Source: Chiloscyllium plagiosum | Taxonomy: Eukaryota | Direction: 5' to 3' | NCBI RefSeq assembly: GCF_004010195.1 | Contig: NC_057718.1 | Coordinates: forward strand, 89,072,787-89,136,786 | Length of the DNA: 64,000 bases | Shown: positions 13,286 through 52,972 of the stretch, one piece after another | How positions within the stretch are numbered: the first letter of the stretch is position 1 | How the letters are laid out: every line of letters begins with the position of its first letter | Translations under genes and position numbers: made by a program | Notes under the pieces: model-generated | What the model was told of the DNA's origin: nothing | What the model saw: the letters and a program-made list of their open reading frames with translations, nothing else | Database searches by the model: none

Positions 13286-13492
13286 CCATGATGTGGAGGG
13301 ACCAATGTCGGACTGGGGTGGACAAAGTTAAATATCACACAACAACAGGTTATTGTCCAACAGGTTTATTTGGAAGTATTAACTTTCAGAAAGCTGCTTC
13401 TTCATCAGATCGCAGCTACATGACAAAAGAGCAGTGTTCTGAAAGTTAGTGATTCCAAATAAACCTGTTGGACTATAACCTGATTTTTAACG
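13286..13492. mobile_element. Inverted-repeat PLE-derived insert, family B, with degenerate hammerheads on both strands
   Basis: Arms caggttattgtccaacaggtttatttggaa / ttccaaataaacctgttggactataacctg; 9-bp TSD tttgagtag (13277-13285, 13493-13501). Confidence 0.75.
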
Positions 13493-15427: not shown

Positions 15428-15650
15428 AAAAGCACGGAATGCTGGAGAAACTCAGCAGGTCTGGCAGTATCTGTGGAGAGAGTTAATGCTTTGAGTTCCA
15501 TAGAGCTCTTCTTCAGTTTCATGAAATCTCAATTCTGGAGAAGAGTCATATTCGACTTGAAGTATTCATTCTGTTTTTCTCTCCACAGAAACTACCGGAC
15601 TTTGGGAGTATTTAAGTACTTGCACACTTTTGTTTCAGATTTCCAGCGTA
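15428..15650. mobile_element. Inverted-repeat PLE-derived insert, family C (older)
   Basis: gctggagaaactcagcaggtctggcag...gagttaa arm followed by its degenerate reverse complement. Related copies at about 15985-16085(+), 17748-17835(-), 39145-39240(-), 41315-41440(+), 46420-46620 (both arms). Confidence 0.7.
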
Positions 15651-21800: not shown

Positions 21801-24265
21801 TTGCTTCGCCACCTCCAACCCCCCAAACCCCACCTCAGCCAGAGCTAACAAACACAAAGTACTCCTGTCTTACCTTGCCTTTTAGCACTGACTCAAAGCA
21901 ATGATCAGCCAAGAGGGTGAACGTGTTGCTGTATGGCCCCACACTATGTCAATCTCGTACCTGCGTCCATGGCAACAGCTGTTGAAGCTAATGCACTGCA
22001 TGTGCGTCAATCGAATGGCCATGTCTTAAAGTTGAAGGGGTGTAGTCCCCAGTCAAGTCAAGAGAAGCAGCTTGCAGCCAGGAATTCTGGGCTCGGTCAG
22101 TAAAGGACAACATCCAATATCCGTCCAGGGACTTGGACACAGCTAGTCACCCACTCAGAGCAGATACGGTCCGGATCCTCTCTTTATATGAGGTAATGAA
22201 TAAAACCCCATGACCCGTCCTGACCCTTTCTGCCCTGTTGTAGGCTGGAATGATGGAGTGGGGAGGATGGAATGAGATGAAGGTTGTCAACGCTGGTGAA
22301 GGTAGGGGAAAGATGGTGAGGGGTCCTGCATGCATAGAGTAGACAGCATAGAGGCCAAGCAATGTTAATGGTGTGGGGATGTTAGCTGGACAAGGGAAGA
22401 TATTGTATGTCATAGCGAGAGTGATAGAACATGAGCCTTGGTGGGAGGTGAGTGCAGTCGCAAAGAGAGAGAGAGGTATTGGAGATGGTACTTTTGCCAG
22501 TGGAGTGGAGAAGGACATTGACCTTCATCCTCTGCTGGGCAATCCCCCGGACGGCTGAGATCTCACTGACACAGGTGACAACATTGGGCCATAGGGTGGC
22601 ATGGTGGCCCAGTGGTTAGCACTGTTGCCTCACTTCACCAGGGTTCGATTCCCTTCTCAGGCGACTGTCTGTGTGGAGTTTGCCCATTCTCCCAATGTCT
22701 GAGTGGGTTTCCTCCAGGTGCTCCGGTTTCCACCCACAGTCCAAAGACGTGAAAGTTATGTGCATTAGTCTGAGGTAAGTGTAGAGTAGTAGGGAATGGG
22801 TCTGGGGGGATTTACTCTTCAGAGGGTCAGTGTCGACTTGTTGGGCTGAAGGGCCTGATCCACACTGTAGGGATTCTATGATTTCTAGGTAAAGCCTGGT
22901 GTCATCACCACTACGGCTAACTTGGGAGGTGATGGGCTGGGAGAAGATGTCCACCCCGTTCCCTGGGACCTCTAGGTCCCTTTCTGCACAGTGAAGTGTC
23001 AATATTCCTTTATCTGCTGTATCTGAGGCAAATATCATGAAATGTGCTGCCCAGCTGTGATCTACTAGCACTTGACTGAGTGCCTTTTAACGATGGCATT
23101 GGCAACAGGGACCAGACCGGGTAAGGAGGCTACATTTTCTTCCCTCAAGAATATCAGTAAAACCAATCGGTGTTGACTTCATGGTCACCATCATAGAGAC
23201 TAGTTTCAATTCCAGGCATATCACAGCAGCGGTAAGTTCTTTCAGCTACGGTGAGTGAGAGGGTCGGGCAGGAATTCGATGTGAAGGGAGCCAATGGGAT
23301 GTGGTATGCTAATAACATGAGTTTGGGATGTGAGGAAACCTCTCTGAGCCTCACAGACAGAAACCCTCCCCGACATTTTGTCTAAATGTGGTGAGATTCA
23401 GTCTTTGGTTTCTCCCCTACCTGCAGTTTTCTGCCTTGTGGATCGAAGTCACGTTTAGTGCAGAGCAGAAGGGAGTATTGAGAGAGAGAATGTTTAACAG
23501 GAAGGCCAAGCAGAAGCATCTATCTCCATCTCCAATCTTCTAATCTTACAAAAGATTGTAACCTAGTGGTGATGTCTCGTACCTTGGAGACATGGTTTCA
23601 AATCCCACCATGGCAGCTGGTTCAAGTTCACTTCAATAAAAATCTAGAATTGAAACTAGTCTCTACGGTAGTGGCCATGAATTCAATGCTGATTGGTGTA
23701 AAATCCCATCTGTTTCATGTGATTGGCTGCCCAAAGAAATGACTTTGCCAGCCAAGGGCAATGAGGTCTAGACACCAAATACCGACCCTACCAGACATGC
23801 CCACATCCCTGGAAAGAATAAATGAAACAAACACAAGTCTGTGACCCCACACATAATGGAGGATTCCTCTCCAGCAAGGAGAGAGGGCCACACTGTCAGG
23901 GGAGCTGTCTATTAGATGTAACGTTAAACAAAGGGCTTTTGTATCCTTGAGAGAGGAATCAGAAAGAATTCTGAGGCACCACTCCACAAAGAGCAGGGTG
24001 GTTCTCCCCATTCTCCAGGGCAATGCGTTTGCCTCAAATAATGCCAAAAAATAGGACATCCAGTCATTATCACGTTGCTGTTAATGTGATCTTGCTGTGC
24101 AAGAATCAGCAGCTTTTTTATTACCTTATGAGTATTCTATGAAGTATTTATTGTCAGTAAAATTAGGTCATCAAATGGAGATCTTTCTCCCTGCCCTTCA
24201 CGAGATCTTTTGAACCCTTCCTGTTTTCTCATTGAGTTCAAGTATGTTATTTTAACAATAAACTC

Positions 24266-24386
24266 TGTCAAAGTAGTCCTGCCTCTGAGCCTATGACTAA
24301 TGTGCTCTTTCTATGTTCCCTAATAAAGATCGTCAAGTGCTTCATTAAATCCAGGTTCAGAAATTGCACAAGAGGAACTAACTTTG
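24266..24386 (+). repeat. ~120-bp direct repeat, copy 1 (ends ~57 nt upstream of the exon)
   Basis: tgtcaaagtagtcctgc...gaaattgcacaagaggaacta.ctttg; manual alignment to 24996-25115 gives about 15 differences in 121 positions. Confidence 0.95.
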
Positions 24387-24443
24387 TCTCCTTGAAGTCA
24401 CTTAAACAGTTTGACTGTTACCTTTCTCCTCTCGCATTGCCAG

Positions 24444-24770
24444 GTATCCGTAAAGACCGTCGGGGTGGCCGGATGTTAAAGCACAAGCGGAGGAAAGATG
24501 AGAAGGAGCACGTCATTAAGAGTACGGGAGTGACCAGCAGACCGAGCTCCAGCAGCGTGAGCCCAGTGCAGAGGAGCACCAAGCACAGCTCTCTGCTTGG
24601 CATGACCTCGGACGAGATTCTCAGTACCCTGATGGAGGCCGAGCCCCCTATGGTTTACTCCGAACACGACCCCGGCAAACCCTTCACCGAGGCGTCCATG
24701 ATGACTTTGCTAACAAACCTGGCTGATAAGGAATTGGTGCACATGATCATTTGGGCTAAGAAGGTTCCAG
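24444..24770 (+). CDS. esr1: Internal coding exon of estrogen receptor alpha (hinge + LBD helices 1-3; equivalent to human ESR1 coding exon 4)
   Basis: Translates as (G)[22 protein letters not shown]...[47 protein letters not shown](G), matching ER-alpha [16 protein letters not shown]...[45 protein letters not shown]. Pyrimidine tract + CAG acceptor at 24441-24443; GT donor (CCAG|gtagga) at 24771; 327 nt, phase 1-1, same boundaries as the vertebrate exon. The [14 protein letters not shown] hinge is alpha-type rather than beta-type. Confidence 0.93.
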
Positions 24771-24894
24771 GTAGGAACGTGGAGCTTTACTAATCTCCGA
24801 GTACCATGCGGTTTTGTAACTCGCGATGATTACGGCCCAAGCACAACGCATGAGTCTACACAGATGCAGAGCTGACAGTATTGGCTGTGTCAGA

Positions 24895-25250
24895 CCAGCA
24901 TTGAAGAGTGTGGTGCTGGAAAAGCACAGCCGGTGAGGCAGCATCTGAAGAGCAGGAGAGTCAACGTTTCGAGTTCTTCATCAGGATGTTGTCTTTGTCA
25001 AAGTAGTCCTGCTACCAAGCCTATGACTAACGTGGACTTTCTATGCTCCCAAATAAAGATTGTCAGTGCTTCATTAAAACCAGTTTTAGAAATTGCACAA
25101 GAGGAACTATCTTTGCTCTTCATTCCTGATGAAGAGCTTATGCTTGAAACAGCGATTCTCCTGCTCCTCGGATGCTGCCTGACCCTCTGTGCTTTTCCAG
25201 CACCACACTCTTCGACTCTGATCTCCAGATCTGCAGCCCTCACTTTCTCC
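24895..25250. mobile_element. Family A inverted-repeat PLE insert whose spacer contains direct-repeat copy 2 (24996-25115)
   Basis: Minus arm 24905-24987 ending cttcatcaggat; plus arm 25122-25250 starting attcctgatgaag; possible 8-bp TSD gtgtcaga (24887-24894, 25253-25260). Confidence 0.85.
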
Positions 25251-26284
25251 CAGTGTCAGAGTAAAGGACAGATAAATTAATAAATTCAAATATGAGTTTC
25301 AGTCAAAGATAGATGACATTGTCCCAAGATTAAACAGTGTCACATTGTGCTTTTTCCTGCAAAGATTGAGAGTTGCAGCTTGTGTTCACTTACCTGACAG
25401 GCCTGTCTCTGCCAAAAACCTCAAACTGTCTCAGTCCAGCGGAAATCACAGATCATGTCTGATCAGACTTTGATGTTTAAAATTTTTTTTTTTAACTGGC
25501 TTGGATACAGCATCAGCATCTCTCAAACAGATTCCAAGTGTTTGTTTTGAAATGGAGTGAAAAGAAGTGACAATAGGTTGTTATGAAGTATAGAGTGAGC
25601 CGAGTCCAGCCATTCTAAAGCTTAGAGAAATCAAGAGTTGCTCACTGCATGTAATATCCAAAGATTAGATTCCCTACAGTGTGGAAACAGGCACTTCAGC
25701 CCCACATCAACCCTCTGAAGAGTAACCCACCCAGTCCCATTTCCCTCTGACTAATGCACCTAACACTATGGGCAATTTCCCATGGCCAATTCACCTGACC
25801 TGCACATCTTTGGACTGTGGGAGGAAACCAGAGCACCCAGAGGAAACCCACGCAGACACAGGGAGAATGTGCAAACTCCACACAGACTGTCACCCAAGGC
25901 TAGAATCAAACCTGGGACCCTGGTGCTGTGAGGCAGCAGCGCTAACCACTGAGCTACCCTGCATGTCGGTTAGCTTGACATGACAAAAGCTAACCGGGTG
26001 GAGTAGGAAAAATATATCATAGACTGGAATCTCCAGCACAAACCATTCTTGAAACAAAATCCGTGAATTATTTTAAAGAGATTGAAATGGAAAGAGGGTT
26101 TGAACGAGAGGACCTTGACTAGATTGGAGGCTCATGTGGAGGCAAATGCCAGCAAAAAAGCTGTGCCTTCCATTACCCCCAACAATACATCCCACTTCAT
26201 CCCCACCTTCCTACTGCATGCACAGGAGGGCCTCCTCCCTCCTTATGTTCCAGGTTCTTAAGAAAACCTTTCTGTGAACTGGCA

Positions 26285-30239: not shown

Positions 30240-31790
30240 GGGTCTATTGTAAAGGTTGTATAGCAAAGCATTTGGAGATACACAGCGTTATCAAGCAGAG
30301 GCAGAATGGCTTCATTAAAGGAAAATCATGCCCGACAAATTTATTACTGTTCTTTGACGAGGTAACAAACAGGATAGATAAAGGGGAATCAGTAGATGTA
30401 ATATAGTTGCATTTCCAAAAGGCATTTGATAAGGTACCGAACAGAAGAGTTCTCAATAAGAGCCCAAGGTATTGGTGGCAGTATATTCGTATAGATAGAG
30501 GATTGGCTAATTAATACAAAAGAGTTGGAATGTACTGGGCATTTTCACGATGGCAACTTGTAACTGGTGGAATACGACCAGCACTCAAAATACTATTGCA
30601 AAGTATGCGGGCAACACAAGATTAGGTGGGACTGCAAGTGATGAGGATGACACAAAGAGTCTGCCGAGGGATAAAAACAGGTTAAGCGAGTGGGTAAAAG
30701 CTTGGCAGATGAAATATTATATGGGGAAGTTGAGTTTATGCATTTTGGCAGGAAGAATGAAGTGCTGAATATTACTTAAATTGTAAAAGATTGCAGAAAA
30801 CTGCAGCACAGAGATCATTTGGATCTTCTTGTATGAGTCACTAAAAACATTCAAGTTCAGCTTGTATTTTTAATAAGTCTGCCCAAAATAGAGAATGTAA
30901 AATGAAGGGTGGACTGTATTTCAAAGGGAATAGAGTACACTAGTCTTGTTATAAACATGACAAAGCATGATCAGACCACAATTAGAATACTGTAAGCAGT
31001 TTTGGATCCAGAGAAAGATGTACTTTTATCTGCCTTTATTCATTCATAGGTTGAGGGTATCGCTGGTTAGGTAGCATTTATAGCCCATCCCTAAATGCCC
31101 AGAGGGCAATTAAATGTCAACCACATTGCTGTGGGACTGGAGTCACATGTAGGCCAAACCAGGTAAGGATGGCAGCTTCCTTCCCTAAAGGGCATTAGTG
31201 AACCAGATGGGTTTTTCCCTGACAATCATGGTCATCATTAGACTCCTAACTCCAGATTTCTATTGAATTCAAATTCCACCATCTGCCGTAGTAGGATTTG
31301 AACCTGTGCCCCTAGAACATTATCTGGGCTGACAGTCCAGTGATAATACCACTAGGCTATCACCTCCCCATGGCATTGGACGCAGTCCAGAGGAGGTTGA
31401 CTAGGTTGATCCAGGGGATGGAGGGATTTTCTTATGAGGAGGGGTTGAGCAGAGGTTGAGTCTGCACTCATTGGAGTTTAGAAAATTGCAAGGCCACCTT
31501 CTTGAAATGTATATGTCACTGAGGGGGCTTGACAGGGTAGATCGATAAAGGTTGTCCCACCTGGTGGTATAGGCCATCACTAGAGTGCCAGATCTCAGAG
31601 GTAAGACAGAGATGAGTTAAGACAGAAATGAGGAGGGTTTTCTTCACTTAGAGAGCAGTGAATCTCTGGAATTCTTTATCCGAGAGAGAGGTCGAGGCTA
31701 GGTCATGAAGAAAATTCAAAGAGACAGACAGGTTCTTAATGAGGAAGGGACTCAAAGGATAACAGGAAAAGACAGGAAAGTGGAGTCTTG
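30240..31790 (+). mobile_element. Degenerate CR1 RT fragment interrupted by a SINE at 31035-31368
   Basis: QNGFIKGKSCPTNLLLFFDEVT..ID.G.SVDVI, FQKAFDKVP, KYAGNT (FADDT-like); homology resumes at ~31370. Confidence 0.85.
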
Positions 31791-32625
31791 AAGCTGGAAC
31801 TCAGAGACAGGAAAGCTGTCATTGAGCTGGAGCTTACAGCAAATTCATCCCAGGGGAAATTCGGTGGTGGTGGAAATGGATTGCAGCGAATGTAACTGCA
31901 TGTCGCTCTCAGCCCCTTCTCCTTGACTCCTCAGGGACACTTCACCATCTGCTCAGAATGGGTCTTGCAGGACAGGAATACACTGAATGCCTTCCCCCCT
32001 GTCGGGGGGTGGGGTGGGGTGGGGTGGATTTTGGCGATGATAGTCACAAAATCATGAGTCAGGGTAAAAAAGCTGTTCACTCGTAGCTGTCTTCCTCCCG
32101 AAATAATTGGCTGTGCCATCTTCTCATTGCAGCACCCAACTGGCCTCAGTCAGTCTGCTGGCTTAACCCATTCCGATTTGTACCCTCTGTGTAGGTATGT
32201 GCCTGACGCCTTTGTGTTCTTCTCTCTGGATTGCTCTTATGTTTACTATCTCAACTCCTCAAGTAAGTGGCTGCATTTGAGTAGAACACACTCACTCCCT
32301 TGTGGGGCAGGGGTGAGTGTTCACGGTACAGCTTCATTGAATTTGAGGCCATTTCATTGCTTGGTTGGTTTCTCAGAATTTATACTACAAATGGGTAACT
32401 AAATACAGTTTCAGCCTTCAACATGACATTACAAAGTGCGCTGGAATGATGTGGAATGGCCGTATCGAAAGGCTATCTTCTCAGTCTGAACCATGGGTTT
32501 CAGAATGAGTTCTTCATAATTTCAACTGCAGCACTTTCTGTTCAAGGGGTAGGGGGTCATCATTAGAGGCTTATATTCCATCAGAGATGGGCAGCTCCAG
32601 CTAGACCAGACATGACCTACTGAAG

Positions 32626-32716
32626 GCAAAAGTAAGGACTGCAGATGCTGGAGATCAGAGTCGAAAGTGGGGTGCTGGAAAAGCACAGCAGGTCAGGCAG
32701 CATCTGAGGATCAGGA
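32626..32716 (-). mobile_element. Family A PLE-derived short insert lacking the hammerhead
   Basis: 12-bp TSD gacctactgaag (32614-32625, 32717-32728). Confidence 0.8.
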
Positions 32717-35700
32717 GACCTACTGAAGTGCTAGTCCTGATAATGGGAACAGGAGATAACCTTAGAGATAGATCTTGAAGGTTTCACGTGGAGGGGCTGA
32801 GACTATTGGCTGCTTGTTCCATTGTCAAGTTGTCCAGGGGAAGAATGACTGTTGATACACTGCCTTGGGAACTAATAGCTTTTGTAGTTTGTGTGGATGG
32901 CTCTTTTATTTGTCATTACTTGGGAATCTCGGGTACTTGTTTCTGTTCATTACCACAAATACATTACAAACCCAGAATGTGGTTTCTCCCCACCACTTGC
33001 CACTAGAGCACTGGCTGTGACGTTGTTCAAATTGTTGTTTCGATTCATTTATAAGATGCAATTATCAAAATTTATTGCCCACCTCCAATTGCTAACAGCT
33101 TGAACCACTGCAGTACCAGCTAGGTAGCTTGCCAGGACATCTCAAAGGCAACATGTCAACCAGAATTTCTGGCCTTAAAGGAAGTTAGTGAATCAGATGG
33201 GATTTTATGATAACTGTTTTATAGTCACATGATTGGGCTAGCTTTTAATTTCAGATTTTACTCACCATCTGTCATGCTGGGATTTGAACCCATTTCTCTT
33301 GAGGGTGATAGCCTGGATTAATCATGCAATGACGTTATCCTAACCCACCACCTCCCTGGAATCTATTTTCTCTCCTATTACACTGCAGTGTGGTGCATGA
33401 GCACTCGCAGACCACCAATAGAAGTGATGTGCAGCATTAGGCCCAAAAGAAAATGTCAAGCAAGATCCCAGAGTTGCATCCGTCACTGCTCCCTTTCTTT
33501 GGGTAGTGTTCTGCCACGTCTCAGGGTAATGGTGGCAGCCAGGAGAAGCCATTTGGCCTCTCTGCTGGCACTGGCTTCACCAGATTGGTTCAAAGTCATG
33601 GGGTTGTTCTGGGGCTTACATTTCTGGCTGGAGACTGACTACAGACCTTCTTGTAGAAAGATCCTTAAAGGGAATGAGAGTGGGATTGGAGTGGGTGGGG
33701 TATTAAAGAGTCAAGGAAGTTGAGAAAAAGAACAGAATTAGACTCAGTTTGATATTGAAGGTTATGGGCAATGAGCAAGTGATTGAAGCGTAGGCTTGAT
33801 CGAAAATGTGAAGCGAAAGGCCTAGCTGGGGAACTGTACTCTAGTTGTGGAAGAGCGTCCAAAAATGTTCATGAGAGGTATTAAGAATGGAGCGGGGTTT
33901 CCTGGATTCTCTGATGTGGTGCTGGGTGTCTCAGGCATGGAGGTGGAGAGGAGTGGTCACAGTCTGGAGGGCCACAAGGGCCTCAAGACAGATACTCCTG
34001 AGGATATGGGATTAGGAAACCATCAAAGGTCAATGTGAGGAATGTACCTTGGTACTGCATAAAAAGAATGGGCTTCCACAAGACATTAGTGTCAGTGATT
34101 ATATGTTCAAATGCCATCTCTCAATCATTAGACTCATAGAGTTATACAGCACAGAAACAGATCCTTCCATGCCAAACCAGATATCCTAAACTGACCCAGT
34201 CCCATTTGCCAGTATTTGGCCCATATCCCTCTAAACCCTTCCCGTTTATATATCTATCACATTGCACTGCACCAGGCTGCACTGCAGAATGACCATATCA
34301 CCTTCACACCCATCAGCAATCTCAAACAATGTGGATTCATTGATCATTTTGTTGTTCCCCATAGCTGCTTACCAGTCTCATTCCACGTCTCGTAGCTTCC
34401 TCGCATGAGCAACTATTTACCTGTAGCAGGTACAATCCCGGACACTGCACCACACTCACTGGCACTCTTTCTTTTCTCATCCAGAACAAGAAGGCAGGAG
34501 AGGAGAGAGAGAGTGGGGGAGAGGCACACCTGCATTTCCTGAGACAGTGGTGTGAATTGTTGAGCCAACAGTGACTGACACTGTTGTGATCGGCCTCATC
34601 AGGGCGATGTGATATTACGCACCTTCTCCATCCCTGCTTCAACCTGCCCTCCCCCCCGCCTCAACCTGGTCTGTGAGTCGTGAGACCATTCACCTCTCCT
34701 CTTCCGTCCAATAAAAGCAATGGGAGATAGAATGAGGCCTTTGATTGGCTATTAATTATGGGTAGGTTGGGAGAGGAGTCACATGGTACAACAGCACCTC
34801 CCTCCCGCCAGGGAGGGAAGGTAAAGTTCAACCCAAAATGGCAGGCCAGGCTCCAAGTCGGTATTAGGCATTAAGTGATGCCACGATATGCCAGCTCTGC
34901 ATGCTTTCCCGCACGTGCCCTTTCTGGTGCCCTCCCAAGAAGTGGGTCGGCTGTACAGGAATCAGCCAGCAATGAATTGGCCATCTTCGAGGCACTGACA
35001 CAACACAGCCTCATTTTCTGACCTTTGTACTTTCTTATTGAATAGAGAAGAGCAGAATGACATACATCGGACCCAGAATTATCACCTTGAGCTTTCAATT
35101 TGATTCTAAGACTGTGTTTTGGGGGTCAAAGTCCAAGTGACAGGAAAGTTTTTTTATAGAAAAATCAATGATGCAGCTAATGGGGACACAGTGACCAGCT
35201 CTTCACCACCAGATTATTGCAATGTGTGCTCAGGTATTGCAGTACGTACAGTGACAAGGAACTTCAGCAATCCAAATCTGATCCATCAAATCAAAATCAC
35301 TGGTATTGATTGAAATGACGCTACACTTGCTAGTTGCAGTCACAGTATTATGTGTGCAGTTCTGAAGTCTGTAAATGAATAAAGATGAAGAGACATTGGG
35401 GAAGGTGAGAAAAAAGGTTGACAAACGTGATACTGGAACTGAGGAGATCTCACTATCAGGTATTTATGAACAGATTGAGTTTCTTCAGAAGAAATATCCG
35501 ATCGTGTATATTATAAATCATATTAAATTATATTGTAATTGCAAAGCATGGTGATAAAGTAGACGCAAAATGGTATTTCCAATTCTAAGGGATTCCAGAC
35601 AAGTGTCCATAAACATAAATCACTAATAAACTGATTAAGAAATTCAGGAGCATTGAGGTGTATCTTATAGAAACCTATAAAATTCTAACAGGAGTAGATA

Positions 35701-36054
35701 GTATAAATGCAAGAATGAGTTTTGCAATGACCTGGGATTCCAGAACTAGGGAGAGCTGAGAATGTGGACCACAGCGAATATGGGAGGTTTATACTTGGAA
35801 AGCTAATGAGGAGTTTGTTGATAGGATGGATTGAGGTTAGTTTGGAGGAGGTTCTTATAGGTGTCTCTGTGTTCTGAATTCCAAGTAACAGGATGTAAAA
35901 CAGGAGGAAAATACCCCAGCTGCTGGAAGTCTGAAAACAAAAAATATACATTCAGTTGGTTCAGCAGCAAATACAGTGTCAAAAATTGAATTAACATTTC
36001 AGAAGAGATTACAGGAATGTTGTCCTAACTGATCACTCAGTGCAGGAAGTGATC

Positions 36055-36230
36055 AAGACCAGAAGTCACTCGACACCAAGTTATAGTCCAAGCAGTTTAT
36101 TTGAAATAATAAGCTGCTCCTTCGTCAAATGGACATCAAGCGCTCTAAAAGCTTGTGAAATCAGATAAATGCGTTGGACTATAATCTGGTGTTGTGTGAC
36201 TTCTGACCTTGTTCACCACACCTCCACATA
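36055..36230. mobile_element. Decayed family B inverted-repeat insert
   Basis: agaagtcac..gacacca.gttatagtccaa / ttggactataatctggtgttgtgtgacttct arms. Confidence 0.7.
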
Positions 36231-36279
36231 GTGGAAGTGATCAAGGCAGAAGTGCAGACTCAACTGAGCTCCGTCTCTG

Positions 36280-36785
36280 AGGAAGGGCATTCCGGCTACA
36301 GAGAGAGTGCACCGATGATTTACCAGACTGATGCCTGGGATCGCAGGACTGATGTGAAGAGAGATTGGATAGATTTGGACTTAATCACTTAGAAGAATGA
36401 GGGGTATCTCACAGAAATATATAAGATTCTAACTGGTCTAGACCATGTAAGTTCAAGAACATTGTTTCTAATGACCTGGGGGTCAAGAAATAAGGGTCAT
36501 AGACTAAGGATACAGGTTAGGGTATTCATGACTAAGACAAAGAGAAATTTCTTCACCCAGAGAATGGTGATCCAGTGGAATTCTTTGCTACAGAAAGAAG
36601 TTGAGGTTAAAACATTCAATAGTTTCAAGCAGGAGGTAGAAATAGTTTTTTTGGAATGAAAGGGATCAAAGGATATGGGAAGAAAGCAGGAGTAGTTAGA
36701 TGATTATGCATGATAATATTGAATGATGGCACAGGCTCAAAGGGCTGAATGGCCTACTCCTTTTCCTGTTTTCTATATTTCAATG
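36280..36785 (+). mobile_element. CR1 3' fragment
   Basis: GHRLRI...RNFFTQRMVIQWNSL; an older related piece lies at 35330-35760. Confidence 0.8.
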
Positions 36786-38621
36786 ATATCCTTCCAGCAA
36801 GTGTCCCAGGCACAATATTATACAACACAGATTTAACTTGATAGCCCACTTCAGGAAGTTTACCTGTCTGCAGTGGTACACAATCTGATGAATTTGTTGT
36901 TATTTATTCACTTATTGCCCATCCCTAATTGACCAGAGGTCAGTTAACAGTCAGCCATATGGCTGTGGGTCTGGAGTCACATGTAGGCCAGATGAGGTAC
37001 GGCTGGAATTTTCCTTCCTAAAGGACATGAGTGAATGCCTTGGGTTTTTCTCTCAATCTTAGAAACATACTTACTAACTGAAAAACTCTGTTCCCCATTC
37101 TTGTCAATATATTTCCTCTGTTTCGATCGCACATCCTTCCTTCACGCCTTCACTCCCACACAATAGCCGCACAACTCAAATCAACTGGCCAAGCCAGGGA
37201 AAATTGTTTTTTATCCCTTGCCCTTTGATGTATAGCAAAGAATCTTGAGAACAACCTAAAAAACAATCCCGCACATTGAGACTCCTACACAGCTCAAATC
37301 ATGTTGGGCAACCAACGGAAATTGTTTGAATAATTCTTTTCATTTCCCTTTTGATGTATAGCGGAGTCTTGAGAACGACTTTTAAACATTGGCTTGAGAT
37401 CAAAGACCTGCACCAACCGCTTCAGAACAAATGATCTTGTTCTGGTTTTTAGCCACTTTACGAAAGGGGGAGAAAAACAGTCCCTCAGGTTTTCGATTAT
37501 TGTCTGGAAGTTCTGCATCGTTGAGTTCCAGCTACGAGCCCTCCCTTTTGGAATTCTCTTCATACCAAGCAAGCTATGCCAGAGTTTGTCCAAGGTCACA
37601 TCAGTTATAAGATGCCACCTGACCTTTAGCTGTGGTTTACTTCAGTTTTTTTTTCAGCAACAGTGAAATGTTGAGAAAATGATAAATTCAGTCTTGTCAC
37701 TTATACCAATACGTTAACATTTCAGAAATGCACCATTCGATCAGACTCCCTGCAGTGTGGAAACAGACTCCGTCAGTCCAATAAGTCCACACCAACTCTC
37801 GGAGAGCAACCCACCCAGAACCATTTCCCTCTGACTAATGCACCTAAACACTACGGGCAATTTAGCCTGGCCAATTCACCTGACCTCCACATCTTTGGAG
37901 TGCGGGAGGAAACCAGCGCACCCAAAGGACAGACGTGGGTAGAATGCACACAGACAGTCGCCCTGAGGCAGGAATCGAACCTGGGTCCCTGGTGCTTTTT
38001 CCACTTATGTTTCCATGTTTGATTCTGAATTGTGTCTATCGTGTGAAAGGTTTTTTGAGAAAGGGACAAGCTCTACTGATGCTGTGCCTTATTGCGCCAC
38101 ATTATCTCAAAGAACCTCTGATCCAACAAAATTCCTTTGAAGTACAATCATTTTCAGGGCCACGTGTATCAGCTGTTTGTGCACAGCAAGATCCCAGCAG
38201 AGCAACAAGAGCGATGACCAGTAGGGGAGAGACGGTGGAAGGGGTCAGCCTTGTTATCCGAGGGGAGAATAATTGTCAAGGGAACTTCCTATTCTTCTTC
38301 CCAGAGCACAACACCATCCTTTACAGTCACTGAGTAAGGGGTCATACACACAAACGTATAAATTAGGAAAAGGAGCAGGCCGCTTGAGTTTGCTTTGTGA
38401 TTCAATGAGAGTATGGCTGATCTGAAAAATCCACATTCTCGGAGAAAGTGAGGACTCCACATTCTCACCAACCCTCAACAACGTTTCATTCACTTTCTTA
38501 TCAAGAATCTACCCACCTCTGACTTAAAAAAAACCCAAGATCCCTGCTTCACCTGCCTTCTGAGGACAAGAGAAAAAAAAACTTCCTTCTGCCTGTCTTC
38601 AATGGTTGACCATTTTATTTT

Positions 38622-38831
38622 AGTTAAAAGTCACACAACACCAGGCTATATTCCAATAGGATTATTTGGAAGTTGAAGCTTTTGGAGCGCTGCTCCTTCA
38701 TCAGGTAGCTGATGAGGGAGCAGCGCTCCAAAAGCTAGTGCTTCCAAATCAACCTGTTGGACTATAACCTGGTGTTGTGTGACTTTTAACTTTGTCCACC
38801 CCAGTCCAACACCGGCACCTCCACATCATGG
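38622..38831. mobile_element. Family B inverted-repeat PLE insert with back-to-back hammerhead motifs, inside a minus-strand CR1 fragment (38340-39620)
   Basis: Arms 38622-38705 and 38708-38791. Plus strand CTGATGA(38709-38715)-g-GGAGC-agc-GCTCC-aAAA-GC-TA-gtg; the same motif is on the minus strand. Both have GAAA>AAAA, consistent with CpG decay. Confidence 0.85.
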
Positions 38832-39659
38832 CCCTTTATATTAGGTAGTGATCCCTAGTCCTAGATTCTCCTTCAAGACTTGAGTCCTGTGAGGATCCCT
38901 CAGGATTTACACGTGTCAATCTAGTCATCTCTTACTCATCTAAACTTCAGTAGATACAAGCCTAACCTGTCCAACCTTTCCTCATCAGAAAACGTACTCG
39001 TTCCAGATGTTAGTCTAGTCAACCTTCCCTGAAATGTTTCCAATGTATTTATATCCTCCCTTAAGTACCATGATCAGTACTATGCAAAGTACTCCAAATG
39101 TGGTCTGAACAATGCGCTGTGCATAACCCCCCTAAAATTTGTCACAAAAACAGAACTTTTTGGAAAAACTCAGCAGGTCTGGCAGCAACTGTTGAAAGAA
39201 AGCAGAGTTAACATTTCAGGTCAATTGCCTCTTCTTCAGAACCCCCCTGGTTTTATCCCCAATTCTCTGTGCCGTAAACAAAAACCTTTCTGAATTTGCA
39301 GTAGCTGCCTACTAGTCTTCTGTGATTTGTGCAGTGGGACACTCAGATCCATCTGTGTTTCAGAACTCTCAGTTGTTAAATAAGATGCTTTTAAAAAGAT
39401 TCTTCCTGACAAAATGGGCAATTTCACATATTCCATTTTATTCATTTGCTCGGTCTTGCTCACTCCTTAATCTGTCTTTTTTTGTAGCTCCCTTATATCC
39501 TCTTTTCAGCTTACTTCTCTGACTATCTTTGTATCAGCAGCAAATTTAGCTGCTCCTTTCATCCAAGTCATTTATATGAATTGTAAAAGGTTGAGTCCCT
39601 ATGTGACACCACTCATTAAGATCTCATCAACCAGATAAACCAAAGAGTGTCCGAAGATA

Positions 39660-39900
39660 GACCCTGAGCTTCCAGTTGCCTGCCACTTTAACATACCTCC
39701 GTGTTCCCTGCCCAACATCTCTGTCTGAGTCTTGCTGCAGTGCTCCAGTGAAGCTCAGCACAAGCTGGAAGAACAGCACCTCATTTTCCACTTTGGGACC
39801 CTGCAGCCTTCTGGACTCAGTATTGAGTTCAACATCTTTAGGGCATGAGCTCTCCCATGTCCTTATGCCAACCCCGATACACCAGGCCAGTCTGTTAGAC
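39660..39900 (+). mobile_element. PLE endonuclease C-terminal fragment
   Basis: LLQCSSEAQHKLEEQHLIFHFGTLQPSGLSIEFN; a further piece lies at 40225-40325(-). Confidence 0.75.
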
Positions 39901-40841
39901 TCTATACCATGAGCTGGAAGCAACCCACAGCACATGTTACTTGCTCAAAGAACTCCAATAAATTGGTTGAATATGATTTCCCTTTCACAAAGCCCTAATT
40001 CTTGGAATTCCCTCCTTATGCCTCTCCACCTCACTTATTTTGATGTTATCTTCCTTGTTAACCATCTTTTGGTCACCTGACCCAATTCCTCCTCATGCAA
40101 CTTAGAAGCATGCTTTGGGACATTCCATAACTTTAAAAGTGCCACGTGAATTTAAGTTGCTGTCGATATGTGGACGGGGCAAGGTGGAGAAGAAGCCAGC
40201 ACAGAAATAAGAGGTGTTCACACACTGAAATTGTTAAACTCAGTATTGAGTCCAGAGGGCTGTAATATACCTCGGTGAAAGATGAGGTGCTGTTCCTCGA
40301 GCTTGCATTTAGTCTTGCTGGAACCCCTTACAGCATGGGGCGGCATGGTGGCTCAGTGGTTAGCACTGCTGCCTCACAGTAGCAGGGTCCCAGGTTAACT
40401 TCCAGCCTCAGGCAATTGTCTGTGTGGAGTGTGCACATTCTCCCCATGTCTGTGTGGGTTTCCTCTGGGTGCTCCGGTTTCTTCCCACAGTCCAAAGATG
40501 TGCCGGGTAGGTGAATTGGCCAAGCTAAATTGCCCATGGTGTTAGGTGCATTAGTCAGAGGGAAATGGGTCTGGGTGGATTGCTCTTTGGCGGGGCGGCG
40601 TGGACTTGGTGGGCCGGAGGGCCTGTTTCCACACTGTAGGGATTCTAATCTAATCTATATTCCATTACTGATTAAAAATCCATCTATCATAGCCTTGAAT
40701 ATACTTAAAAATCCAGCTTCTATAGCCCTATACAGTAAACAATTCCACAGACCTACTACTCTCTGTGAGAAGAGATTCCTCCTCATCACTGCCTTAGAGG
40801 GTGACTCTGAGATTATGCCCTCTGGCTGTAGACTTCCCAAC

Positions 40842-40977
40842 GTGTGTGTGTGTGAGAGAGTGTGTATCTGTGTGTGTGTGTGTGTGCGTGAGAGAGAGAG
40901 AGGAGAGAGAGTGTGTATCTGTCTGTGTCTGTCTGTGTGTGTGTGTGTGAGAGAGAGAGTGTATCTGTCTGTGTGTC

Positions 40978-41009
<32 letters not shown>

Positions 41010-41086
41010 TGTGTGTCTGAGAGAGAGAGTGTGTATCTGTCTGTGTGTGTGAGAGAGAGTGTGTCTATCTGTCTGTGTGTGTGTGT
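40842..41086. repeat. Compound (GT)n/(GA)n/(GTCT)n microsatellite
   Basis: Higher-order unit approximately gagagagagtgtgtatctgtctgtgtgtgt, repeated several times. Confidence 0.95.
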
Positions 41087-41637
41087 TTAATGTCCTGCCA
41101 GAGGACGTAGTGGAGGCTGGTACAATTACCAAACATTTAAAAGGCATCAGGATGGGTTGGGGAGGATTTAGCAGGACTTGGGCCAAATGGCGGGCAGATG
41201 GGATTAGATTAGTTTAGGATATCTGTTCAGCATGGATGAGTTGGACCAAAGGGCCTGTTTCCGTGCTGTGCATCTCTATGACTCTAAATGCCACCCTTCC
41301 CCATCTATCTTCATTTCTGACAAAGGGTCACTGGACTCGAAGTGTTAACTCTGCTCCTCTCCACACAAATGCTGCCAGACCTGGTGCGTTTCTCCAGCAT
41401 TTCCTGTTTCTGTTGACGATTTCCAGCATCCACAGTTATTTGTTTCAGGGAATAAAAGGTTTCATGTGGAAAAGGCAGGAGAGTGGAGTTGATGATTATC
41501 AGATCAGCCGTGGTCTCATTGAAACAGGAGGAGCTACTTCTGCTGCTACATCTAATGCGTTTACGGTTTTATGGGCATTTCAGTTTAGTATATGGTGAAT
41601 AGAGGGAGCTGCATTAGGACTGGGATCATTATTTTCT

Positions 41638-41865
41638 AAGTCGAGAGTGTGGTGCTAGAAAAGTGCAGAAGGCCAGGCAGCATCTGAGGAGCAGGAGAAT
41701 CGACGTTTCAGTCATAAGCCCTTCATCAGGAGGGCTATTCCTGATGAAGATCTTATGCCCAACGCATTGATTCTCCTGCTCCTCGGATGCTGCCTGACCT
41801 GCTGTGCTTTTCCAGCACCACACTCTCGACTCTGATCTCCAGCATCTGCAGCCCTCACTTTCTCC
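41638..41865. mobile_element. Family A inverted-repeat PLE insert
   Basis: Arms meet at cttcatcagga-gggcta-ttcctgatgaag; 11-bp TSD cattattttct (41627-41637, 41866-41876). Confidence 0.85.
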
Positions 41866-42089
41866 CATTATTTTCTTAACCCTATGACAACATGGCCCCT
41901 TGGAGTATCTGTGCTGCCAAAAGATCAAACATCTTAAGGTCCACCAAACTGATGGAAAGACTACCTCTGCAGGTAGTTTCTTCCCCTTACCTCCATCCAC
42001 CATTGCAGAGAAAAACTCTCATTCAGTCAGCATATATATCGTGGCAGCGTTCAAAAACGTAACACAGAGTATTGGCGTGAAACATGGCA

Positions 42090-42592
42090 GCAAGGATGTT
42101 GTGAAACTTGAAAGGGTTCAGAAAAGATTGACAAGGATGTTGCCAGGGTTGGAGGGTTTGAGCTATAGGGAGAGGCTGAATAGGCTGGAGTTGTTTTCAC
42201 TGGAGCATTGGACACTGAGGCATGACATTATAGAAGTTTATAAAATGAGGGGCATGGATAGGGTAAATAGACAAGGTCTTTTCCCTGGGGTGGGTGAGTC
42301 CAGAACTAGAGGGCATAGGTTTTGGGTGAGAGGGGAAAGATATAAAATGGATCTAAGTGCCAGCTTTTTCACGCAGAGGGTGGTGCGTGTATGGATGGGG
42401 CTGCCAGAGGATGTAGTGGAGGCTGGTACAATTACAGCATTTAACAGGCATTTGGATGGGTACATAAATAGGAAGAGTGTGGAGGGATATTGGCCAAAAG
42501 CTGTAAAATGGGATGAGATTATGTTAGGATATCTGGTCAGCATGGATGAGTTGGACAGGGTCTGTTTCCATGCTGTACATCTCTATGACTCT
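42090..42592 (+). mobile_element. HER1/CR1-like LINE 3' fragment
   Basis: KDVVKLERVQKRLTRMLPGLEGLSYRERLNRL...; ends ctctatgactct. Confidence 0.9.
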
Positions 42593-42619
42593 TTGACTGA
42601 GAGTGGTTGGAATGGAAAA

Positions 42620-42831
42620 AGTGAGGACTGCAGATGCAGGAGACCAGAGTTGAAAAGTGTGGTGCTGGAAAAGCAGCAGGCCAGGCAGCATCCGAGGAGC
42701 AGGAGAATCAACGTTTCGGGCATAAGCCCTTCTTCAGGAAGAAAGGCTTATGCCCGAAACGTCGATTCTCTTGCTCCTCGGATGCTGCCTGGCCTGCTGT
42801 GTTTTTACAGCACCACACTTTTCAACTCTGT
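42620..42831. mobile_element. Family A inverted-repeat PLE insert
   Basis: 13-bp TSD ttggaatggaaaa (42607-42619, 42832-42844); ~95-bp arms. Confidence 0.85.
42708..42740 (-). ncRNA. Minimal hammerhead motif, core intact
   Basis: Reverse complement ttc-CTGAAGA-A-GGGC-ttat-GCCC-GAAA-CG-TT-ga. Confidence 0.7.
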
Positions 42832-45800
42832 TTGGAATGGAAAACCACTATCAGCAGAAGTTAAGGACTCAGCAAAACTCTGGAACGCTCTACAATGTCA
42901 ATCGTAGAACTGGTGAATAGTTCCTGCAAGGAAGGAGGTCACTTGGCCTGTCTTGTCTGTGCTAGTTCTCCATAACAGCCAGCCCCCTGAGTGGATGAAC
43001 AAAATGCTGTTGACTGTGGTATTCATAAAACCATCAGCAACTCTGACAAAGTTACTATCTTCTTAAGACTATCCCTGGTAAGTAAGATTGAGTGTGGCCA
43101 ATGAGACAGCAGAAGGTGACAAGGGGTTTGGTGAATCTTACCATCAGTAAGATTTCTGCTCCCTTTTCTAAAGAACATCTGGTCTTGATGTACTTTATGG
43201 CAACATGCTTTATCCAATTTCTTTATTAGCCCATTCCTTGGCTATTTGCTGTGCAAAGGTCAAAGGATGTACAAAAAAATCATGATGTCTTGATTAATTC
43301 ATATAAAGCACTCCAAAATGTTACAGATGATTCACAGTCCTGTTTAGCTCAAGTTTATTTAAATCTGGAATGTGTCAGTGAGATTAGGTCTGTTTTAGAG
43401 CCACCAGAGCTTATTTTTAAACTGCTGTCTGTTACCTCAATAGAACCTCAGTCTATTACCTCAATAGTATACTCGCCAACTTTAAGGGCTTTTAAATGGC
43501 CATTGGATAAACATATGGATGATAATGGAATAGTGTAGGTTGGATGGGCTTCAGATCAGTTTCACAGGTCGGCGCAACATCGAGGGCCGAAGGGCCTGTA
43601 CTACGATTTAATGTTCTATGTTCTATAGCGAAGGGACGTGGAGAATAAGAATAGTCCCTGCCTGTTCCTCAGGCATTAAGGAAATGCTCAGTAATCCAAT
43701 ATGGGCCTCAACGTCCACTACATCCTGTATTGGGCTGGTCACTCTTTGCACTCACTGTGCATTCAGCACTCAGTTTTCTCAGGCACAGCACAGCAGTTCA
43801 ACAAGAGCTCCACCTGCCATCCAAAGATAAACCAAACCTTGAGCTCTCCTCCTGTTCCGATTTCAAAGCCTGGCCTGTTGCTAGCCATCTCAGTCCTTCT
43901 CAAGCAACACTCACCGTGCAAGAGATCCATTTTGTCCAATTTGTTTGCTTTGTAGTTCAAGGTTGCTGGCAGGAATCAATTCTGAGGCTGTCATCTCTCC
44001 CAGAGTCACTTGCAGAGGTGTGCTTATTTCTGGAAAATCAATCTCTTGTCAGTTTGACTACAATTGATGAACGCGCAACACCTCTGCAGACCAACAATCG
44101 ATCTGACCGTGTGGTCCAAATTGTCAAGAACAGGCTGATTTCTATTCCCCCAAGATTCCTTCCCATCTCACATGTGCTGCTGAGTCCATTAAAAAAGTGT
44201 GATTATTGCTTAACACTTCTTGTTAGCCACTTGATTTCAATTGTAGGTGTAAATATGCACATAGCTACAATTCAAGGTAAAGTCTCCATCATCCTACAGA
44301 CAATAAGGCTGCTCTTTCATTAGAGAGAGAGAGAGAGATGATTGGTGGTGGCTTAACCTGAGGCTCAGGCAAGTGACAACAGTTGACAGGTCTTGCTGTT
44401 GATAACTTGATTTCTGGCATGAAAATGAAAATACAAACTTTGAAATGGAAATGCTTATGCTGTAGAATGAATACAGACTTGCTCCAACACTGACTTTACC
44501 ATCCTTCTCATTTCGGAAGTGAAACCTGATGCAGGAACTAATCCTGACTATCCAATAAACTGCCCCTTTTCCTCATTAGCTTCAGACCAAAGTGTCAGTC
44601 CAAATGGCTTCCATCATATCTCCATTTAGAATTAATCTATTGAATTGGTTGAGAATAAGGAGGCCATTAGGCCCATCGTTTCTGCGCTGGGTTTTTCAAA
44701 GAGTTATTCTATTAGCTCCACATTGCCCCTTCCCCATATTGACAGCAACATAAATTCATGTGGCACCTTTAAAATTATAGAATGTCCCAAAGCATGTGAC
44801 TAAGTTGTATGAAACGAAATTCAGTCAGATGACCGAAAGGCGGTTAACAAGGAAGATATGAGGGGTGACTTGTAGAAAAAAGTGAGGTGGGGAAGTGTAA
44901 GGAGGGAATTCCAAGAATTAAGGCAGTGACAATTTGTGCACAGCAAGATCCCACCTGTGATCCTGTGGTAATAACCTGACAATCTGTTTTGATTGAGAGA
45001 CAAATATTGGCTGGGACCAGGGAACATTCACCTGGTCCAGTGCAACTGTTACCGTGAGACATTTTTCATTCACTGAAGGGTGACGACAGGGTCTCAGGGT
45101 GACATCTCATCCAAACATAGGCACCTCTGACAGCGCAGCAATCCCTCACCACTTCAGTGAGATATTAATTTTGAGATTCTGTGCTTGAATCATGGCCTTC
45201 TGACTCAGAGGTGAGAACGCTACCGTGTGAGGTGCAGCTGATATGAAATAGAATAATGTTAAAAGTGATAATGATACTGAATACAATCAGCAGAGTGTCC
45301 ATACATTGAACAGTATGGAGATAAAGGCTCACAATGGCTATCTGACATTGTCCTGAATAGAAAAAGGTTTACATTCCCCCACTAACTATTATATTCCATC
45401 TAATGACTATGTTACAATACTTCAGATGCTCAGCACTGTCTGGAAACACAGCTGTAATGGGCTCCCTTATATCCAGCGTTTGATCTGTTTAAAGATGGAT
45501 TCCGTAGATAAAGCCCTTTCTTAAGATGTCATTTGGCAGTTGCCAAATGAGTGATAACATCATGCAATAACTACGAATATAAATTGTATTTTTTTTTTAT
45601 TAGGTAACCTCAAAAGCAGGATCCAGAAACACATTTTTTTTCAGATGGGTCAGGTTGTTTTTGTACATTAGAACCATGAAGAAAGTCAAATACCTAAAAT
45701 TTGAGTAAACAACGCGTATAGTGACCTGAATCTTTCTGTCGCCCTCTATCTTTTCATTAAAAATCAGGTAGAAACTTGGGTCATTCCTTATGAAATCTCC

Positions 45801-46318: not shown

Positions 46319-47207
46319 GTTTCTGGGTTTTGAGTTTGTACCCAACAGGTTTTCTGTGCATGTGCAGTTAACGAACTTGTGAAGAATTTTGCATTCATGA
46401 TGACTTCCTTTTAAAGACGAAAACAGAAATGGCTGGAAAAGCCCTGCCGGTCTGGCAGCATTTGTGGAGAGAAATAGTTTCAGGTTGAGTGACTCTTCCT
46501 CAATTCCGGAAATGTTAACTCTGATTTCTGTTCACAGATTCTGCCAGACCTGCTGAGCTTTTCTAGCAATTTCTACTTTTGTCTCTGATTTACAGCATCC
46601 ACCGTTCTTTTCATTGTTATTTCCTTGAATACCATATTCAGCATGAGTGGGTTTTGTGTGCACCTCAAATGGACCTCTGATTATTTTAGATTGTTTTGTC
46701 ACTCAGTACTGTAAGTAACAGGGCCTCAAAAGTATGTTAATGATTTCTGGAACTTTGTTTTTATTTCAAATGTAAGGGAAACACCCATCGCTTAAATACA
46801 GAGGCTTTTAGTTTCCCTTTTTGACTTTGAATTTGGAGCCGTGCTGTAAGGTCTTTGGAATAGGGTGGCTGCATACAGAAATGTTCCTGAGAAGGGCAGA
46901 AAATAAAGTGAGCTAGATTACCTTAGAGTGAAGAGTTAGTGTTGGTTCCAGACCAGAAGTGTTGAGATGAGACTCTGAAGAGGTTACTTAAAGCAGAGTA
47001 CACTGAAGCTCAGATATATGCGCGTTCCAGGAAGAAGCTGTCTGTAGTTCTGGTCTAAAAGTGGTGTGAGTATTATACAAGTTGTGTTTTGGGTTCTGTA
47101 CCATCAATGTGTCTTGAGTATGATACATAGTGCAATACAGTGGCTCAGTGGTTGGCACTGTTAGCTCACAGTGCCAAGCACTCGGGTTTGATTCCAGTCT
47201 CGGGTGA

Positions 47208-52019: not shown

Positions 52020-52972
52020 TAAATACAGTAAATGCCAGGACACTTATGGGCATTAATAAACAGAGTGATCTAGAGGTGCATGTCCGTAGCTCCCTGAAAG
52101 TGGCAACACAAGTGGATGAGGTGATAAAGAAGGCATATGACATGCTTGCTTTTATCAGTCAGGGCCCTGAGTACAAAGATTGGGAAGTCATGGTATAGCT
52201 GTGTAAGACTTTAGTCTAGATGAGAGTAGTGCTGGAAAAGCACAGCAGGTCAGGCAGCATCCGAGGAGCAGGAAAGTCGACGTTTCGAGCAAAAGCCCTT
52301 CATCAGGAATATTCCTAATGAAGGGCTTTTGCCGGAAACGTCGACTTTCCTGCTCCTCAGATGCTGCCTGACCTGCTGTGCTTTTCCAGCACCATTCTAA
52401 TCTAGACTCTGGTTTCCAGCGTCTGCAGTCCTTATTTTTGCCTGTGTAAGACTTTAGGCCACATTTGGAGTATTGCGTGCAATAGTGGTCATTCTACTAT
52501 TAGAAGGATGTGACGGCATTAGAAACGGTGCAAAAGAGGTTTACCAGGATGTTGTTTGGATTGGAGTGTACTGGCTAAGAGGAGAGGTTGGACAAACTTG
52601 GATTGTTTTTGCTACAGTGTTGGAGACTGAGAGGTGACCTGATAGAAGTACAGAAAGTGATGAGGAGCATGGATAAAATGGATAGTCGAAGTGCACTTCC
52701 CAGGCTGAAATACTGTGGGGGGAGGCTTAAGGGGTTTAAGGGGAGAGGGAGAAATATTAAATGAAACATGTGAGAGGAAAATCTTTTTATGCTGAGTAGT
52801 ATGTGCCTGGAACATGCTACCAGGGGAGGTGGTAGAAGCAGGTGCAGTGGCAACATTTAAGAGACATTTCCTCAGACACATGTGCAGGCAGATGTGATTA
52901 GTTTCGAATGGCTCATGGTGGCACAGGCAGACTGGGATAAAGGACCTGTTCCTGTGTCGTACTGTTCTATGT
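52020..52972 (+). mobile_element. CR1 3' fragment interrupted by a PLE insert
   Basis: DLEVHVRSSLKVATQVDEVIKKAY..LAFI, continuing after 52457 with PHLEYCVQ and VQKRFTRML. Confidence 0.85.
52215..52441. mobile_element. Family A inverted-repeat PLE insert, near-perfect palindrome centred at 52310/52311
   Basis: Centre catcaggaat|attcctaatg; 16-bp TSD ctgtgtaagactttag (52199-52214, 52442-52457). Minus-strand hammerhead 52277-52310 has an intact core (CUGAUGA-A-GGGC-uuuu-GCUC-GAAA-CG-UC). Confidence 0.9.

Follow-up and report, generated by a model that had tools for sequence, protein, structure and literature searches.

Insertions of EN+ Penelope-like elements (PLEs) show a recognizable architecture, in which an inverted, 5′-truncated copy is joined head to head to its neighbour, a tail of 30–40 bp is present on one side only, a short target duplication encloses the whole and a hammerhead motif is carried within it (PMC8557442, PMC3846280, PMC11167929). 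The terminal repeat of such a unit belongs to an element that encodes a PLE reverse transcriptase together with a GIY-YIG endonuclease. One PLE protein, studied in purified form, cleaves each strand of its target and extends it, needs no homology at the start of synthesis and uses two start sites that bound the tail (PMC11167929), and how inverted insertions are made and closed is stated to be unresolved (PMC8557442, PMC11167929). The minimal hammerheads of metazoan PLEs combine CUGANGA, a stem II, GAAA and palindromic bases at positions 15.2–16.2 (PMC4209133). A preprint on retrozymes deals with tandem arrays (10.64898/2026.07.22.740005).

Captured or templated sequence has been described inside several kinds of insertion. 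PLEs of Adineta vaga can hold non-element sequence between pLTRs within one target duplication; those spacers measure 0.9–1.5 kb or comprise a whole gene, lie between direct pLTRs and have moved to new loci, and the accessible text of that report mentions no adjoining donor (PMC3846280). For L1 in tumours, 22 templated insertions are described, typically shorter than 250 bp and with a template within 15 bp, although supplementary cases may lie farther away (10.1101/2024.08.27.596794), and three L1 insertions have been found to contain DNA from near the site, while twin-primed products may have a third piece between their two inverted cDNAs (PMC11702581). Class 2 TSIPs are inserts without a target duplication or poly(A) of their own, with filler bases and, in the cases presented, distant donors (PMC5110952). 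PLE hairpins, hammerheads, host capture and L1 templated insertions are all already described; a search of the openly accessible literature, bioRxiv supplements aside, turned up no PLE inverted junction with a donor from nearby.

Here we analyse such a junction in an estrogen receptor gene of the shark Chiloscyllium plagiosum, in a window of 64,000 nucleotides (64 kb) that comprises the whole stretch of DNA under study. Four features that characterize an EN+ PLE insertion unit are found together at this locus: an inverted, 5′-truncated neighbour joined head to head, a one-sided tail, a target duplication and a hammerhead motif. Unlike those units, the insertion consists of the last 100–130 bases only, without a reading frame, and its inverted junction holds 123 nt of local host DNA, where the published units show an overlap or a short palindrome. 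As in A. vaga, non-element sequence lies between terminal repeats within one target duplication, but here the piece is short, the junction inverted and the source only 0.5–0.6 kb away. As in L1 templated insertions, a genomic template of less than 250 bp (123 nt) sits inside the element, local DNA is duplicated and the donor is intact, in this case in three organisms sampled by public contigs (A, B and C, below). The element and enzyme are different, however, the donor is 501–624 bp away instead of typically 15 bp, and the event is old and germline, whereas those described for L1 are somatic or experimental. Copy 2, as we call the duplicated piece, works like an L1-type templated insertion but is not a member of that class. 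With class 2 TSIPs it shares the filler bases and the lack of its own target duplication or poly(A), and it differs from them in having a local donor and being tied to a retroelement junction. Arms of this family have the hallmarks of metazoan PLE minimal hammerheads, but the two motifs at this locus have degenerated and, being on opposite strands, are unable to form a tandem dimer; nor is the element a tandem array of the retrozyme kind.

Results

Structure of the locus

The features are as follows, in window coordinates.

24263..24386, plus strand: copy 1, the intronic donor segment, single-copy and at the ancestral position (from the repeat alignment and from contigs of A, B and C that are continuous through it)
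24444..24770, plus strand: estrogen receptor exon encoding the hinge and the start (first helices) of the ligand-binding domain; 327 nt, phase 1-1, AG/GT-bounded, with an open frame of 108 codons
24887..24894, plus strand: left target-site duplication GTGTCAGA, its last bases overlapping the short-arm end
24892..24988, minus strand: tail-less short arm of the PLE terminal repeat (from pairing); its hammerhead retains the core and has 6 nt deleted from stem II
24989..24992, no strand: filler of about 4 (up to 6) bases, matching neither the copy 1 flank nor the usual arm front, with a boundary that we infer
24993..25115, plus strand: copy 2, a candidate templated copy of 24263–24386 in direct orientation at the head-to-head junction (from the repeat alignment and an independent contig)
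25120..25250, plus strand: long PLE terminal-repeat arm; its 3′ tail, some 26–34 nt, is absent from the short arm (from alignment)
25253..25260, plus strand: right target-site duplication GTGTCAGA; 9 of 10 bases are identical if it is lengthened two bases leftward

Copy 1 and copy 2 are 87.1% identical over 124 columns with one gap (E about 1e-38 for the 64-kb window), within three bases and one percentage point of the preliminary description, which had placed a repeat of about 88% identity at 24266–24386 and 24996–25115. Once trimmed, the copies differ by 15 substitutions at 123 sites and the one gap, or 16 positions in total; their longest uninterrupted identity is 22 nt and their starts are 730 bases apart. 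The alignment could be extended in copy 1 to about 24389, and the four bases after copy 2 (to 25119) may belong to either the copy or the arm. Copy 1 ends 55 nt before the acceptor AG of the exon, with the polypyrimidine tract outside it. No third copy exists in the 64-kb window, as had been noted, the next blastn match being 26 nt long (E 0.006). Four of the 24 public runs listed, each in the form of contigs, were aligned at 89% likeness: X6, from organism A and another study; X13, from organism B; and X17 and X19, from one sample of organism C. Because depth over copy 1 equals that of its flanks in all four runs, the 120-mer is not high-copy at this likeness, which answers the earlier concern that it might be an abundant repeat. 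It is instead the arms that are abundant, with 30,850–43,726 contigs placed per run and depth piled on the arms. Pattern scans returned no loci, either for a 22-mer shared by the copies in metagenomes or for an arm 20-mer in viral sequences and metagenomes. The start of copy 2 (24993–25003) is a perfect inverted repeat with 5-bp halves and a single base in the middle, and it arises from one of the differences from copy 1; this is possibly chance, or a snap-back trace.

Pairing of the arms bears out the placement of copy 2 between two inverted members of one family (24892–24973 and 25143–25224), and it reaches inward to 24986 and 25124. One exact 8-bp target duplication encloses the short arm, filler, copy 2 and long arm; a common 8-mer occurred by chance in 25 of 20,000 random window pairs. 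A tail on the long arm only is also seen in three of three sister palindromes, and one variant common to both arms is absent from eight other aligned family arms, which fits a single template. The front of each arm is complete to the 5′ edge that is usual in the family, so the hairpin centre lost little if anything. The filler bases at 24989–24992 are probably untemplated. Taken at the level of sequence, the palindrome looks like one PLE terminal-repeat insertion with head-to-head arms, a tail on one of them and an 8-bp target duplication. Its spacer had been called the longest of any palindrome in the window; this holds for the arm family, whose three other palindromes have centres of 0, 7 and 2 nt, but not for inverted pairs of other repeats, whose gaps run to 347–788 nt and more.

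Each arm starts shortly before a minimal hammerhead motif, and core letters are present in both. In the long arm, on the plus strand, the palindromic bases that precede the cleavage site are gone (G16.2 and U16.1 are absent, in a numbering that is our own assignment), while the short arm, on the minus strand, has a 6-nt deletion that removes most of stem II, a U at H17 and only two of four stem I pairs. Neither arm therefore retains the full set of an intact, active minimal hammerhead (core, stem II, palindromic 15.2–16.2 and U16.1–H17), and the term 'ribozyme palindrome' used earlier overstates what are two decayed motifs. The short-arm hammerhead is antisense to the gene, and the arm on the pre-mRNA strand is the one without the conserved pre-cleavage bases. 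Core, palindrome and C17 are retained in three of the nine family arms found. An Rfam search at the gathering threshold gave no matches.

The exon peptide has an estrogen receptor as its best PDB match (E 2.3e-24), and none of the best 60 of 189 matches is named beta. We take the exon to be the equivalent of ESR1 exon 4, the number being that of the human gene. A Pfam search with the peptide returned no families. A scan with receptor motifs revealed no other receptor exon in the 64-kb window, which implies flanking introns of over 24 and 39 kb. Two earlier observations on this exon, that it is symmetric at 327 nt and that the hairpin lies about 130 nt from its donor, are both correct; it is bounded by AG and GT in phase 1-1, and the short arm begins 121–132 nt after the donor.

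Related features elsewhere in the window

Solo or paired insertions of the same family occur at 499–640, 32614–32730, 42607–42845 and 52199–52457 with exact target duplications of 10–16 nt, and the paired ones always consist of one tailed and one tail-less arm. Across the window, five sister insertions have target duplications of 10–16 nt, and at a seventh site, belonging to another repeat family, no target duplication was found. A sister hairpin at 41636–41867 has arms about 84% alike, versus 93% at 42736 and 52310, and these differ at a site that separates family variants; they could derive from two different RNA templates. Its 6–7-nt centre resembles element sequence.

At least two further repeat families also form hairpins, some of them hammerhead-like, at 13341–13487, 15450–15609, 36049–36216, 38622–38791 and 46415–46584; their centres measure 4–96 nt, and none matches unique window DNA. 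Another repeat is represented at 39744–40322 by two old fragments in inverted orientation, 71% complementary and presumably the end of a PLE reading frame, which lie tail to tail across 369 nt, a gap that includes a 209-nt piece also present in inverted form at 44716–44924. The direct pairs 35654/36398 (72%) and 39992/44924 (79%) were considered as junction copies and rejected; they look like dispersed repeats, and we assign them provisionally to repeat families.

Comparison with public contigs

A 167-nt contig from organism A covers 24944–25110 with no differences and spans the junction between short arm and copy 2. Because this contig is independent, the junction is not misassembled, and the doubt raised earlier about the assembly is settled on that side; the copy-2/long-arm junction is bridged by none of the contigs listed. 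In B and C, each run has one contig that begins at 23900, crosses copy 1 and the exon and enters the short arm; it differs at 27 of 1031 positions in B, and at 46 of 1007 and 50 of 1031 in the two runs of C. The outer junction of the short arm is bridged in B (X13) and C (X19), reaching 39 nt into the arm, and that of the long arm over 25207–25491 in B and 25200–25490 in C. The B and C contigs thus hold copy 1 and the arm junctions, which makes copy 1 the resident one and dates the arms to before A, B and C separated. No empty site was seen in B or C, both of which have the arms.

Depth over the copy 2 core (25034–25087) is 9.93 in A (X6), 0 in B (X13, read whole) and 0 in both C runs (X17, about 85% read, and X19, about 83%), and no B or C contig that can be assigned to the locus spans this core, so that the zero is a hole favouring neither side. 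It may be an artefact, a loss in B and C, or a sign that the spacer is confined to A. Contig simplification may drop a node of this type, short and single-copy with very high-copy arms on either side. X6 also has holes, in the exon, and Logan contigs are simplified and lossy by their own description (PMC12424806). The contig joints listed (15 of 445) are all arm-to-arm with short sides; they most likely stem from paralogous hairpins and have no bearing either way on a 730-bp deletion.

Over 23900–24444, the organism A run differs from the window at 7 of 545 positions, five of them common to B and C, which may reflect high diversity within the species or a difference in labelling. Within copy 1, small deletions are present in organism C at 24269–24297 (4 nt in both runs and 6 more in one), and the donor segment therefore seems unconstrained.

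Age of the insertion

The arms differ from each other at 11 of 84 positions (6 of 74 outside CpG) and the copies at 15 of 123 (11 of 117 outside CpG), proportions that do not differ by Fisher's test (p 0.83 and 1.0, respectively). Such equality is as expected if both pairs were born together, as far as sequence divergence can indicate, and the 95% intervals are wide (6.7–22% for the arms, 7.0–19% for the copies), leaving co-insertion and early repair not separable by this measure. CpG-type changes, whose direction we infer, seem to have affected both copies. With all differences counted as intronic, divergence between the copies exceeds the A–B distance (27/1031; p 0.0005) and, weakly, the A–C distance (46/1007 and 50/1031; p 0.04–0.07). 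The matching divergences, together with outer arm junctions common to B and C, make the insertion event old.

Discussion

Our analysis suggests that copy 2 is probably, if far from certainly, a templated insertion, in which a double-primed PLE insertion had its two cDNA ends connected via a jump onto local host DNA or pre-mRNA. From the architecture and from PLE biochemistry, a staggered endonuclease cut would have fallen about 120 bp inside the intron downstream of the exon. Both 3′ ends would then have primed reverse transcription, a distal start giving the long, tailed arm and a proximal start giving the short one. Both cDNAs stop a few bases short of the hammerhead motif, leaving the arms head to head, as the sequence shows here and, with 0–7 nt between, in sister insertions. 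One cDNA end would have jumped to nearby host sequence, copied about 123 nt and released, after which a few filler bases would have linked it to the other cDNA end. As copy 2 is in direct orientation and the donor lies upstream, the copier would be the long-arm (bottom-strand) cDNA, reading either the top strand exposed by left-end resection or nascent pre-mRNA of the gene, both of which fit; alternatively, the short-arm cDNA may have copied the bottom strand.

The template switch suggested in the preliminary description thus stands in outline: copy 2 is at the junction of one insertion flanked by a target duplication, copy 1 is present in B and C, and the divergences are equal. What changes is the distance, since the donor lies 501–624 bp from the insertion site and the 730 bp given earlier is the post-insertion spacing of the repeats. 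Several observations count against co-insertion. First, there is no clear microhomology at either copy 2 junction. Second, none of the six other palindrome centres tested is a copy of unique window DNA, making this a single case within the window. Third, the donor is 501–624 bp away as against the 15 bp typical of L1. A bridge of host origin speaks for two cDNAs that were primed separately and united at the target, rather than for a palindrome brought in ready-made.

Another possibility, which we regard as doubtful but worth serious attention, is a history in two steps: a near-perfect palindrome was inserted, and a later break or stalled fork at its centre was patched with local DNA by host repair, through templated end joining or fork switching. 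Copy 2 does lie at the palindrome centre, which is where a cruciform would be cut, the filler bases at one junction fit end joining, and equal ages also fit an early repair, at the stage when the arms still resembled each other most. On the other hand, the arm fronts are intact to the family's usual edge, with little or nothing lost at the centre. A recent repair in lineage A alone would make 15 differences in 123 sites a misfit with the A–B distance of 27/1031, unless the copying was very error-prone. Insert patches at breaks are known as class 2 TSIPs, but the donors described for these are distant, not local (PMC5110952).

It is improbable that the spacer arrived with the element, either in a PLE RNA with host sequence captured by self-priming or read-through, or from a diverged third copy, its nearness to copy 1 being incidental. 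In rotifers, PLEs do enclose host DNA that they have captured, both as spacers and between solo pLTRs that have target duplications, and for head-to-head junctions self-priming has been proposed (PMC3846280). Moreover, the single-copy depth of copy 1 speaks only for copies at least 89% alike. That depth is nevertheless single-copy in four of four runs, and we estimate the chance of landing less than 1 kb from the source in a multi-gigabase genome to be of the order of 1e-6.

We give very little credence to the idea that the repeats or hairpin are functional, promoting in-frame deletion or duplication of the exon or tuning its splicing, and were retained for that. The exon is symmetric, the hairpin region folds stably as RNA (−181.6 kcal/mol, z −14.7) at 121–132 nt from the donor, and the branch-point-like CTAAC of copy 1 (24378) is altered by one base in copy 2. 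However, any inverted repeat folds in this way, and there are several in the window; the change in CTAAC may be chance. A cryptic acceptor at copy 2/long arm has candidate AGs, but 734 AGs in the window pass the same pyrimidine rule, which makes the candidates uninformative. With respect to recombination between the copies, the geometry proposed earlier is right, as 730 bases would be lost or gained, comprising the 109-codon exon in frame. The likelihood is another matter, since the longest identity is 22 nt, whereas efficient recombination takes roughly 200 bp in the yeast and rodent data summarized in PMC3924818, and exon deletion or duplication by this route is therefore unlikely. Signs of homogenization are absent, the arms and copies decay alike, and the B and C contigs are intact from copy 1 via the exon into the short arm, although contigs drop rare alleles. 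An estrogen receptor lacking the hinge and first ligand-domain helices should be crippled, which also speaks against retention. An ER-alpha isoform with exon 4 skipped exists; we found no paper on such skipping in the literature searched. The element is most likely a neutral intronic fossil, a harmless scar of sealing, rather than an exon-rearranging device.

An assembly artefact is scarcely credible: tandem and inverted PLE structures do trouble assemblies (PMC8557442) and the copy-2/long-arm junction is unbridged by the contigs listed, but the copies differ at 16 positions and an independent sample has the short-arm/copy-2 junction without a difference over 167 nt.

This is a single old intronic event, whose value lies in being a mechanistic footprint, and a simple genome-wide test follows from it. 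We tentatively raise the possibility, well short of a firm expectation, that the PLE's own reverse transcriptase seals double-primed insertions by template jumps and that a measurable share of shark PLE hairpins have a centre copied from local nascent pre-mRNA or resected DNA. If so, these abundant hairpins would be a natural record, in their orientation, distance and sense bias, of late steps in the PLE cycle that are as yet undefined, and they would steadily give rise to short duplications of local sequence, which could take in splice signals or entire small exons.
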